Under the pieces are notes generated by a model. It was not told where the DNA came from. It made no database searches and saw only the letters and a program-made list of their open reading frames with translations. A program made the position numbers and the translations under genes. From Shigella phage ESh27, in the sequence record ON528737: a stretch of 64,000 nt of DNA; one strand, 5' to 3'. Positions 1 to 2,040 of the stretch are shown here, piece by piece. The stretch's first letter is position 1. Every line of letters begins with the position of its first letter.

Positions 1-246
1 GTTAAAGTTAGAGCTGGGTTATATTTAATTATTCGCGAAAATTCTGAATTCCCTAATGGAGTAGCTCCAGGCGGTGTACGTAAAAACTACATGGCAGCGA
101 TCAGTTCATTTGTTGATGCAGCTTACGAAATCTATAAAGAAGATTATAAAGAATATCAGCAGTCACAACCGGTTATTCGTTCGATTGGTGTAAATAAACA
201 AGCACAAAAATCTATTTGGCAACGTATTAAGGAATGGTTTAAATGA
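1..246 (+). CDS. hypothetical protein, C-terminal fragment (5' end outside window)
   Basis: Frame-1 open from window edge to TGA 244-246 (..[11 protein letters not shown]); stop overlaps next start (ATGA); no family recognised. Confidence 0.45.
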
Positions 247-704
247 AATCATTTAAAGAACGCTTAGAGCTATTAGATTTAGCCTTGTCTCGTGAGACTC
301 CTGAAAGTCTAGCAGAAAAATTCCAGTCCTACGGTTATAATTATTCTGCTGATGATATAATGAATGAAGTTCCTGAAATCTGTTGGCAAACGTGCTATTG
401 GAACAATGACCAAAAAGTTCAACGTGTTATAGTATGTGCAGCTAATAGGTTTAAATTGAAGAGTGGTGGAACTCTGGTTATTCCTGGAGTTCGTCATTAC
501 TCTAAAGATATGGCTGAAGTACTTGATATAGTTGGTCCTCAATTAGTCTCGCAACAAGTTTGTGGTGACGACCAAGGCTTTATTGACCAATACTCTAATT
601 ACTGGACACGTGAAGAAGCAATGATTATTGCAACGTATGCTGGACAGGTATGTATTGAACGTGGCGGAAGTGAGAAAGAACTTTATTCAGAGGACCTTTA
701 CTAA
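243..704 (+). CDS. hypothetical early protein (153 aa)
   Basis: ORF track; ATGA overlap with upstream ORF and abutting downstream ORF, typical T-even early operon packing; no family recognised. Confidence 0.55.
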
Positions 705-985
705 TGAACCTTAAACAACTCCAGAAAGATGCTATTGAATCACGTATCCAAGATATCAAACGTCTTAATCATATGATGGAAGAAAACTATGGCATGTATG
801 CTAATCAGCCAGGTTGGGATGCTTTAGATCATCCTTATTTGGTCAATCTATGTAAAGGTGATACATTAGCAATTATTCGTGAAGGGTTAAAACCTTTCTT
901 GCGTGACATGTATATTAAAATGAACGAAGAAATTATTAGCTCGTTGCAATATCAATTAAGGAAATTAGATGATGAGAATAATTGA
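704..985 (+). CDS. hypothetical early protein (93 aa)
   Basis: ORF track; tightly packed in early operon upstream of asiA. Confidence 0.5.
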   Translation: MNLKQLQKDAIESRIQDIKRLNHMMEENYGMYANQPGWDALDHPYLVNLCKGDTLAIIREGLKPFLRDMYIKMNEEIISSLQYQLRKLDDENN

Positions 986-1196
986 TTCTAAAGCAGATTA
1001 TTTTAATTCTGTTAATGATAAGAATAAAGCTTTAATTCGCCACTTTATTACTGAGATGGGTTATACTGACTCTAAAGATTTGAAAGAACACATTATCGAA
1101 TGTTCTGTGGCTAAAAAGTTTTCTTTTACCGATAAATGTTTAAATGAGGTTATAAATCATTATGAACAATCTTGTAGCAAAACACGATTTCAATAA
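969..1196 (+). CDS. hypothetical early protein (75 aa)
   Basis: ORF track; exact start uncertain. Confidence 0.4.
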   Translation: MMRIIDSKADYFNSVNDKNKALIRHFITEMGYTDSKDLKEHIIECSVAKKFSFTDKCLNEVINHYEQSCSKTRFQ

Positions 1197-1270
1197 GGCT
1201 TCCGTCCATAAGGACAAGAAGAAATCGGAACTTCAATCTAAACGTAAACAAAAACATAAGGGTAAAGACT

Positions 1271-1558
1271 ATGCTTACTAAAATCAAAGAAAATCCTGCC
1301 ACTGAACTTGTTATTCGATGTGAAGAACTTGCAGAGCTTTATCAGGTTAACCGAGAAGTATATCGTAGTGTTGTTGCCGATATGGCAGACGAAGTATGTT
1401 CTCGTATTCCTTTTAGTGTCGATTTCAATCATATGAAGCCTGGTGAAATCACTATCGTATTTGGTTCTGACTATACTGAAGAACGGGCTTTTAATGTCCT
1501 AGAATATGAAATGTCATTCTTTGACATACAGGACTACATTGATAGTTATAAGGAATGA
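1271..1558 (+). CDS. hypothetical acidic protein (95 aa); possible Arn-like DNA mimic
   Basis: About 21 Asp/Glu vs 9 Lys/Arg; size and position near asiA match T4 arn (92 aa) but sequence identity not verifiable from memory. Confidence 0.45.
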   Translation: MLTKIKENPATELVIRCEELAELYQVNREVYRSVVADMADEVCSRIPFSVDFNHMKPGEITIVFGSDYTEERAFNVLEYEMSFFDIQDYIDSYKE

Positions 1559-1559
1559 T

Positions 1560-1721
1560 ATGAGCCATAATCTTCAGAACGTAGTAGAGGCAGAACGTGA
1601 GCGTGAGGCTTTAGTCTATAATGAACTATTAGCCACGTTCTTGGCCTTACACTCGTATGAACAAGAAGACTACACTGATTACGTTAAAAGTGTAGAAAAA
1701 GCTGTTTACAATCAACACTGA
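1560..1721 (+). CDS. hypothetical small protein (53 aa)
   Basis: ATG at 1560 directly after stop of upstream ORF; track lists a longer alternative start at 1506. Confidence 0.35.
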   Translation: MSHNLQNVVEAEREREALVYNELLATFLALHSYEQEDYTDYVKSVEKAVYNQH

Positions 1722-1767
1722 TAATGGTACTATAATCGTATCAACCAAATGGAATGAATAAAACGTT

Positions 1768-2040
1768 ATGAATAAAGATATTGAAATTGTACGTGAAATT
1801 ATTACTGTTGCTTCTATTTTGATTAAATTCTCGAGGGAAGATATTGTTGAAGACCGAGCAAATTTCATCGGATTCTTGAATGAGATTGGAATTAAAAAAG
1901 ATGGTCGACAGCTAAATCAGAGTTCGTTCAGAAAACTAATTACAAATTTAACTGCCGAAGAAAAGAAAACACTGATTAGTGAATTCAATGAAGGTTTTGA
2001 AAATATTTATCGCCATTTGACGATGTATTCTAACAACTAA
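1768..2040 (+). CDS. asiA: anti-sigma70 protein AsiA
   Basis: 90 aa, near-identical over its length to T4 AsiA as recalled (MNK.I..VREIITVASILIKFSREDIVE.RANFI.FLNEIG...). Confidence 0.9.
   Translation: MNKDIEIVREIITVASILIKFSREDIVEDRANFIGFLNEIGIKKDGRQLNQSSFRKLITNLTAEEKKTLISEFNEGFENIYRHLTMYSNN

Follow-up and report, generated by a model that had tools for sequence, protein, structure and literature searches.

A divergent Arn-fold homologue, and candidate DNA mimic, in the arn operon of the Mosigvirus phage ESh27

The Arn protein of phage T4 is a DNA mimic that inhibits McrBC and H-NS DNA binding (PMC8501957). It also blocks the PUA-Cal-HAD defence, an activity abolished by the substitution N70S alone, and the Arn proteins of T4 and T2, which differ at three residues, differ in their inhibition of this system (preprint, PMC12871103). 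In T4 the gene order is motA, arn.4, arn.3, arn.2, arn.1, arn (92 amino acids, aa), asiA.1 (50 aa), asiA and t, and in T2 the genes from arn.4 to arn yield a single abundant middle transcript (bioRxiv 10.64898/2026.06.19.733364). The present analysis concerns positions 1-1721 of a 64,000-nucleotide (nt) stretch of Shigella phage ESh27 (sequence record ON528737), called the window below, and in particular an open reading frame (ORF) of 95 aa at 1271-1558, referred to as ORF95. All window features described here lie on the plus strand. As a whole, the region is best explained, with a probability of about 0.72, as a version of the arn operon with a divergent Arn that acts as a DNA-mimic inhibitor of host DNA-binding proteins.

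Over bases 1-2100, megablast finds 98.1% identity to phages PhAPEC2 and phiC120 and 97.8% to RB69, and the window is assigned to the RB69-like genus Mosigvirus. The matching stretch of RB69 is annotated as motA, arn.4, arn.3, arn.2, arn.1, RB69ORF259c, RB69ORF258c and asiA, after which t, 38 and 37 follow on the opposite strand. The gene order of the window is exactly syntenic with that of T4, and ORF95 occupies the arn position. An earlier reading made from the letters alone (the sequence-only reading) had placed the cluster upstream of asiA and in the slot that holds arn and the motA-adjacent small genes in T4; both placements stand, with asiA found at 1768-2040 (Pfam AsiA E 9e-33) and synteny that is exact from motA to t. 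Judged by sequence, the T-even 'arn operon' is represented in region 1-1721 by its Mosigvirus version, comprising arn.4, arn.3, arn.2, arn.1, a basic ORF of 39 aa, arn and asiA.1.

The product of ORF95 (RB69ORF259c family, phrog_8202) contains 20 Asp and Glu residues against 9 Lys and Arg, which gives a net charge of -11 and an isoelectric point (pI) of 4.37, and only two of the 86 crude gene calls of the 64-kb window are more acidic per residue. The marked acidity reported in the sequence-only reading is thus borne out, and the possible likeness to Arn that this reading raised now has support from a bridge sequence, deeper profiles, a structure prediction made without Arn, and shared acidic positions. 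Specifically, an exhaustive hmmsearch (HMMER) of 1.84 billion representative proteins, with a profile built from the ORF95 family alone, matched end to end a protein of 91 aa (P0022; E 4.8e-7 at 1.8 billion proteins); the other matches of this search are long repeat proteins, which we take to be compositional. P0022 shares 33% identity with T4 Arn (90 aa aligned, E 7e-11) and 29% with ORF95 (89 aa aligned, E 2e-16). The contig that encodes it, from another T4-like phage, carries in order the C-terminus of the 39-aa ORF, P0022, a 42-aa ORF beginning with MSHNL, asiA and the holin gene t.

The same link is obtained with profiles. When local hidden Markov models (HMMs) were scored at Z = 1.8e9, with 535 decoys from the window, the HMM of the ORF95 clade matched P0022 at 2e-9 and the Arn HMM matched it at 6e-5, and a joint HMM of Arn and P0022 matched every member of the ORF95 clade with 28-37 bits (E 2.7e-4 to 0.23; best decoy 9.6 bits). 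Alignment of the ORF95 clade with Arn by hhalign gave 59.8% without the bridge (E 8.8e-5, 84 aligned columns) and 95-97% once P0022 was added to either side. At the level of PHROG families, P0022 matches both phrog_8202, the ORF95 family (9e-15), and phrog_3151, the Arn family (2e-7), and T4 Arn itself matches phrog_8202 over its full length (E 0.0054). Common ancestry of ORF95 and Arn is therefore well supported by transitive and profile-profile homology. More routine searches returned little: profile scans of Pfam, NCBIfam and PADLOC gave no match to ORF95, a word-indexed homologue search recovered close relatives only (at least 81% identity), and a PDB sequence search, with the single sequence and with a profile, did not match T4 Arn (3WX4). 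The PDB search did repeatedly return an RNA-phage coat protein, but weakly (E 0.002-0.009); this match was judged spurious, as the fold search lent it no support.

A first AlphaFold2 (AF2) model of ORF95, from an alignment that included Arn sequences, had a predicted local distance difference test score (pLDDT) of 93.2 and 3WX4 as its top PDB match (template modelling score, TM, 0.81). Because this alignment could itself have imported the Arn fold, AF2 was repeated, as a check on circularity, on 11 ORF95-clade sequences without Arn or bridge sequences. The Arn-free model (pLDDT 91.2, predicted TM 0.77) retained the same order of strands (E) and helices (H), E-H-H-E-E-H-H. In a Foldseek search of 350,542 PDB chains its sole match with E<1e-3 was 3WX4 (TM 0.80/0.78, root-mean-square deviation 2.3 Å over 94 columns), the next-best match reaching TM 0.53. 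The predicted fold of ORF95 is that of T4 Arn, an alpha/beta fold of about 92 aa (beta-alpha-alpha-beta-beta-alpha-alpha). Among viral predicted structures the model matched further proteins of similar size (about 90 aa), all uncharacterised, from phages that include KP179 and AmPh_EK29 of Klebsiella and EcS1 of Escherichia coli, with TM 0.68-0.90 and 14-32% identity; the Arn fold is therefore widespread among T4-like phages and has mostly gone unrecognised.

The charge is conserved along with the fold. Net charge ranges from -11 to -18 in the ORF95 clade and from -6 to -10 in Arn proper, and is -12 in P0022. There are 15 conserved acidic columns in Arn and 19 in the ORF95 clade, 8 of which coincide where about 3 would be expected (hypergeometric p = 0.0017), and the shared columns are distributed over helices 1, 2 and 4 and the beginning of helix 3. 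It is very probable that ORF95 is an Arn-fold homologue. As a separate observation on the Arn family, one member from a Logan assembly (P0014) has nearly all Asp and Glu replaced by Asn and Lys, for a net charge of +16, the pattern expected from G-to-A changes throughout; it is probably an artefact of sequencing chemistry or hypermutation and not a real basic Arn.

For ORF95, gene order, homology, fold and conserved acidity are established here. What we infer, on the other hand, is that the product dimerises, mimics DNA and counters restriction, and which target it has. The protein would be made early, along with the rest of the cluster, and, by extension from T4 Arn, would serve as a small negatively charged decoy that occupies the DNA-binding surface of host proteins and so blocks them. 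Candidate targets would be the type IV restriction enzyme McrBC, H-NS and other DNA-sensing defence proteins. Mosigvirus DNA contains arabinosyl-hydroxymethylcytosine (PMC8594841, PMC8056088), and the result of such blocking could be the shielding of replicating hydroxymethylcytosine (hmC) DNA before its full arabinosylation. On balance, a role as an anti-defence DNA mimic seems somewhat more probable than not, and McrBC is a possible target, though less probable than not.

The genes of the cluster have diverged very unequally. In the comparison with T4, aa identity is 77% for arn.3, 40% for arn.2, 73% for arn.1, 79% for the 39-aa ORF, 21% for arn (ORF95), 26% for asiA.1, 73% for asiA and 72% for t, and in the comparison with the Tequatrovirus slur14 the corresponding values are 80%, 91%, 100%, 100%, 96%, 94%, 96% and 81%. 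Thus, over window positions 704-2040 (slur14 locus L011, 934-2270), from arn.2 to asiA, proteins are 91-100% identical to those of slur14, and the flanking arn.3 and holin gene t only 80-81%. This pattern indicates that the arn.2-asiA block was recombinationally exchanged between Mosigvirus and Tequatrovirus, and arn and asiA.1 appear as a hypervariable pair between conserved anchors. Since no other genes of the cluster come close to these two in divergence, the target of ORF95 may be unlike that of T4 Arn. The end of the arn-like gene varies also among close relatives: at 1556-1562 the window and phage ChristianSchoenbein read GAA TGA, and RB69 and slur14 read GAA CAA TAT GAG TCA TAA. The TGA thus comes four codons earlier, giving 95 aa instead of 99 and turning an 11-nt overlap with the next gene into a 1-nt gap. 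In Klebsiella phage Roth23 (locus L006, 1163-1604) the 39-aa ORF is followed not by arn but by an unrelated gene annotated 'anti-CBASS protein acb2', whose annotated start is probably too far upstream; the position downstream of the 39-aa ORF may, as this hints, be a variable anti-defence slot.

Several results weigh against the proposed explanation. ORF95 does not match the Pfam family DM_Arn (PF22134, gathering score 26 bits) even at E 10, where T4 Arn scores 186.7 bits and the bridge P0022 16 bits (E 0.015); its identity to T4 Arn is only 15-21%; direct BLASTP between the two aligns 38 residues only (E 0.004 in a single comparison); and a first hhalign run with two shallow alignments gave 3.2%, a value since superseded by the deeper alignments. 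In addition, because N70S alone abolishes one of the inhibitory activities of T4 Arn (PMC12871103), target specificity is not transferable from T4. It could be argued that ORF95 is just one of many small acidic early proteins with a common alpha/beta fold and no DNA-mimic or anti-defence role. Its neighbours are acidic too (pI 4.6 for the 153-aa and 4.7 for the 53-aa product), two other small ORFs of the window exceed it in acidity, and ferredoxin-like and KH-like domains occur among the weak structural matches. This account is nevertheless improbable, given that 3WX4 was the sole significant PDB match (TM 0.80, against 0.53 at most for any other) with Arn excluded from the alignment, that the bridge is significant when scored against a database of 1.8 billion, that the genomic slot is identical in three lineages, and that the acidic positions are shared beyond chance. 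A still more sceptical view would hold that the five or six ORFs, being short and hypothetical in most database records, arose by chance or were wrongly called as genes in intergenic sequence rich in AT. This can be set aside as already refuted by the conservation data: every ORF has a strong PHROG match, the ORFs are conserved across hundreds to thousands of phage genomes, substitutions in the 39-aa ORF are biased towards synonymous ones, and the T2 cluster is abundantly transcribed, with plasmid-expressed His-tagged Arn.2 seen by immunoblot (bioRxiv 10.64898/2026.06.19.733364).

A stronger competitor accepts the Arn ancestry and fold of ORF95 and supposes that the protein has been retargeted, so that McrBC is no longer inhibited and another host factor is neutralised, such as a further type IV enzyme, one recognising glycosylated hmC, a PUA-Cal-HAD-like system or H-NS. 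Here arn and asiA.1 would form a fast-evolving anti-defence cassette with alleles that differ in target. The low identity of these two genes to T4 (21% and 26%, against 72-79% for flanking genes) speaks for it, as does the exchange indicated by a cassette 94-100% identical to that of slur14 between outer genes at only 80-81%. Further support comes from the unlike PUA-Cal-HAD inhibition by the T4 and T2 Arn proteins, three residues apart (PMC12871103), and from the further Arn-fold proteins of about 90 aa, at 14-32% identity, in Klebsiella and other T4-like phages. The conserved acidic columns, in turn, fit a retained general DNA-mimic surface that possibly still binds McrBC. A hypervariable arn and asiA.1 pair that is also exchanged fits an arms-race locus, and retargeting therefore receives sizeable weight, if distinctly less than an even chance. 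Somewhat more tentative again is the fuller proposal that arn and asiA.1 constitute a hypervariable, horizontally exchanged anti-defence cassette anchored by the 39-aa DUF7230 gene and asiA, in which the RB69-type allele would have a non-T4 target spectrum and the basic 39-aa and acidic AsiA.1-like peptides might partner the mimic. If it were true, the targets of the RB69-type allele might include defences sensing arabinosyl-hmC DNA or other DNA-sensing systems. The reading preferred here remains that of a divergent Arn acting as a DNA-mimic inhibitor within its operon.

As for the rest of the cluster, the ORFs of 153, 93, 75, 95 and 53 aa listed in the sequence-only reading at 243-1721 all have the coordinates and lengths given there. 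Each has a plausible Shine-Dalgarno sequence, and they are regarded as genes and not chance ORFs because all five have strong matches to phage protein families (PHROG E 1e-31 to 3e-69). That reading, however, overlooked a sixth gene, the 39-aa ORF at 1162-1281, and its label 'uncharacterised' is apt as to function only, four of the five being plain orthologues of named T4 genes; the refuting outcome, homology of all five to T4 proteins with an unrelated, already characterised function, was not observed. The cluster is compact: its genes overlap in part and read in the early/middle direction towards asiA. The first of them downstream of motA is arn.4, of which the 3′ part (1-246) is present, the rest lying outside the window; RB69 arn.4 can be aligned with it, and its PHROG matches are phrog_33982 and phrog_1594. 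It is followed by the orthologues of arn.3 (153 aa, 243-704; phrog_839, E 3e-69), arn.2 (93 aa, 704-985; phrog_1844, E 2e-40) and arn.1 (75 aa in its long form, 969-1196; phrog_4452, E 4e-40). Overlapping stops and starts, claimed for the whole cluster, occur at the arn.4/153-aa (ATGA, 243-246), 153/93 (TAATG) and 93/75 (17 nt) junctions, but not between the 75-aa and 95-aa ORFs, which are 74 nt apart, nor between the 95-aa and 53-aa ORFs, which are separated by 1 nt.

The 74-nt gap is filled by the 39-aa ORF (1162-1281), whose ends overlap arn.1 upstream and the arn-like gene downstream. Its peptide, MNNLVAKHDFNKASVHKDKKKSELQSKRKQKHKGKDYAY, is lysine-rich, with a net charge of +8 and a pI of 10.1, and matches Pfam DUF7230 (PF23876; 49.3 bits against a gathering cutoff of 27, E 5.4e-13) and phrog_1359 (E 4e-22). 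The ORF is found in 1267 phage records (tblastn) and is annotated in some related phages. A copy 79.5% identical lies between arn.1 and arn in T4 (NC_000866, 161583-161699; locus L003, 1700..1584, minus strand), where the reference genome NC_000866 carries no annotation for it. Between the window and T4 there are 14 synonymous and 8 non-synonymous codon changes, and 17 of the 27 substitutions fall at third codon positions. The wide occurrence, the identity to T4 and the synonymous bias together identify the ORF as a real gene, one whose conservation exceeds that of its neighbours and greatly exceeds that of arn. The name 'RB32ORF249c', at first taken for a third arn allele, proved to be a label of this same ORF.

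The families phrog_839, phrog_1844 and phrog_4452/6212 each match both window and T4 proteins, and arn.3 is followed by arn.2 and then by arn.1, the order seen in T4, with Arn.3 and Arn.2 (93 aa) in the same PHROG families as their T4 namesakes (phrog_839 and phrog_1844). Arn.3 consists of an N-terminal module of about 40 aa and a C-terminal domain of about 100 aa that is conserved in many phage groups: the domain (window 370-701, residues ~43-153) is found in 1620 phage records (tblastn), including Kuttervirus, phiKZ-like, Erwinia and other jumbo phages, with examples from beyond the T4-like phages at L007 1369-1779, L008 1393-1836 and L009 1375-1806. Its invariant motifs, R84-H85, QGFID and a C-terminal SEDLY, look enzyme-like, and in two jumbo phages the domain adjoins genes for MazG or an HD phosphohydrolase. 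Searches for relatives of Arn.3 in Pfam, NCBIfam and the PDB were negative, also when a profile of 5 distant homologues was used. Residues 1-30 (window 243-332) match the PADLOC model PD-T4-9_B (E 1.9e-7), for a component of PD-T4-9, the toxin-antitoxin-chaperone system CmdTAC that protects against T4 (PMC9519451). A genome-contig scan and a plasmid tblastn with the N-terminal 50 residues returned no bacterial counterpart; the match could be a case of antitoxin mimicry or an artefact of model building.

The annotated T4 Arn.1, of 43 aa, matches only the C-terminal part of phrog_4452 and of the 75-aa Arn.1 described here. The 70-nt 'intergenic region' between arn.2 and arn.1 of T4 (L003 1807-1890, minus strand) is homologous in frame to window 969-1055, which encodes the N-terminal 29 residues of Arn.1 (SKSDYFNSLNDKDKNLIRHFIVE against SKADYFNSVNDKNKALIRHFITE), and T4 contains a TTG in this frame, with GAAGGTGA ahead of it. 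The length of T4 Arn.1 is therefore probably about 71 aa, not 43. This bears on the regulation of the T2/T4 operon (arn.4-arn.3-arn.2-arn.1-arn) by the host small RNA ArcZ (bioRxiv 10.64898/2026.06.19.733364), since with a longer T4 Arn.1 coding sequence would include, right after the start codon, both the published ArcZ pairing site CCAGGGAAAT and the site proposed for RNase E. The cluster of the window resembles this operon in its genes, their order and orientation, and its tight packing likewise suggests one transcript, but arn.2 and arn.1 overlap here by 17 nt, without the 70-nt spacer. The pairing site of T2 arn.2 was not found in window 1-2040 with up to 2 mismatches allowed, and control of the arn transcript by ArcZ and RNase E as in T2 is probably not conserved in this phage.

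Between arn and asiA lies the asiA.1-like gene (1560-1721, from the ATG at 1560; phrog_5245, E 2e-31). Its 53-aa product is acidic (net charge -6, pI 4.7), with about 28 conserved N-terminal residues (MSHNL...) and a variable C-terminus. It shares with T4 AsiA.1 (50 aa) its position between arn and asiA, the N-terminal ~28 residues (MSHNLxxVxExE...) and cross-family PHROG matches: phrog_5245 is matched by T4 AsiA.1 (E 2.6e-4 over residues 1-28) and by the ORF at the same position of the P0022 locus (L004; E 1.3e-8). BLASTP with T4 AsiA.1 gives 33% identity (E 8e-5), the overall identity being 26%. Similarity to T4 AsiA.1 and to the P0022-linked ORF is confined to the first ~28 residues, and the C-terminal half is unrelated in sequence to that of T4 AsiA.1. 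Sigma-70-like elements (TTTACA ... TACTATAAT, 1705-1735), identified by consensus match only, lie within the 3′ end of this gene, about 35 nt upstream of asiA, and are consistent with a putative early promoter of its own for asiA; a consensus scan finds sigma-70-like sites in the region in numbers not above shuffled expectation. The conserved downstream flank, asiA (1768-2040), encodes the anti-sigma-70 factor and is 73% identical to T4 AsiA.

The assignment of ORF95 to Arn is not wholly new, yet it is undocumented and absent from family databases. Most GenBank records list the 95-aa protein as hypothetical, PHROG 8202 is of 'unknown function', and RefSeq and Pharokka-style annotations put the name 'anti-restriction nuclease' on homologues of arn.1-arn.4 instead. 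In the curated GenBank record of the BASEL phage ChristianSchoenbein a gene of identical length, bas46_0084, is already called 'anti-restriction nuclease protein Arn', and the associated paper does not discuss it. In a published survey of the Tevenvirinae the Arn column is blank throughout group II, RB69 and PhAPEC2 among them, and also for slur03, slur08, slur14, phiD1 and Aplg8 (PMC8056088, Supplementary Table 3); slur14 and phiD1 carry the RB69-type arn allele. Recognition of the Arn fold fills this gap of the survey and accounts for an unknown family of Pfam and PHROGs. It also makes ORF95 a concrete candidate for how arabinosyl-hmC phages might cope with type IV restriction before full modification. 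More generally, arn is a rapidly diversifying locus, with exchange between genera, and this diversity matters because single substitutions in T4 Arn change which defence is blocked. Natural Arn alleles could thus serve as ready-made probes of defence specificity, with relevance to the choice or engineering of therapeutic T-even phages.

The classical anti-restriction DNA mimics T7 Ocr (gp0.3) and ArdA are likewise small, early and strongly acidic proteins, of phage or plasmid origin, and are thought to imitate the charge pattern of DNA and so sequester DNA-binding defence enzymes. Their folds and sequences are unrelated to ORF95, for which PDB sequence and fold searches returned no Ocr or ArdA match, and Ocr is in addition far more acidic and targets type I restriction-modification, BREX and RNA polymerase. 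T4 Arn (3WX4) is much closer. The differences are that ORF95, at 15-21% identity, falls below every Pfam DM_Arn threshold and belongs to PHROG 8202 and not to 3151, that its loop between strands 2 and 3 is shorter, and that N70, critical in T4 for PUA-Cal-HAD inhibition, aligns with Y68, with no Asn nearby. The two proteins nonetheless share the slot between arn.1 or the 39-aa ORF and asiA.1 or asiA, a similar size (95 and 92 aa) and net charge (-11 and -9), 8 of 15 conserved acidic columns, and a predicted fold with the same order of secondary-structure elements (TM 0.80, 2.3 Å). They also have in common conserved hydrophobic and aromatic positions that include L20, L23, Y24, Y31, F48, G58 and D88-Y89, as well as the acidic 'D-Y' motif at the C-terminus.

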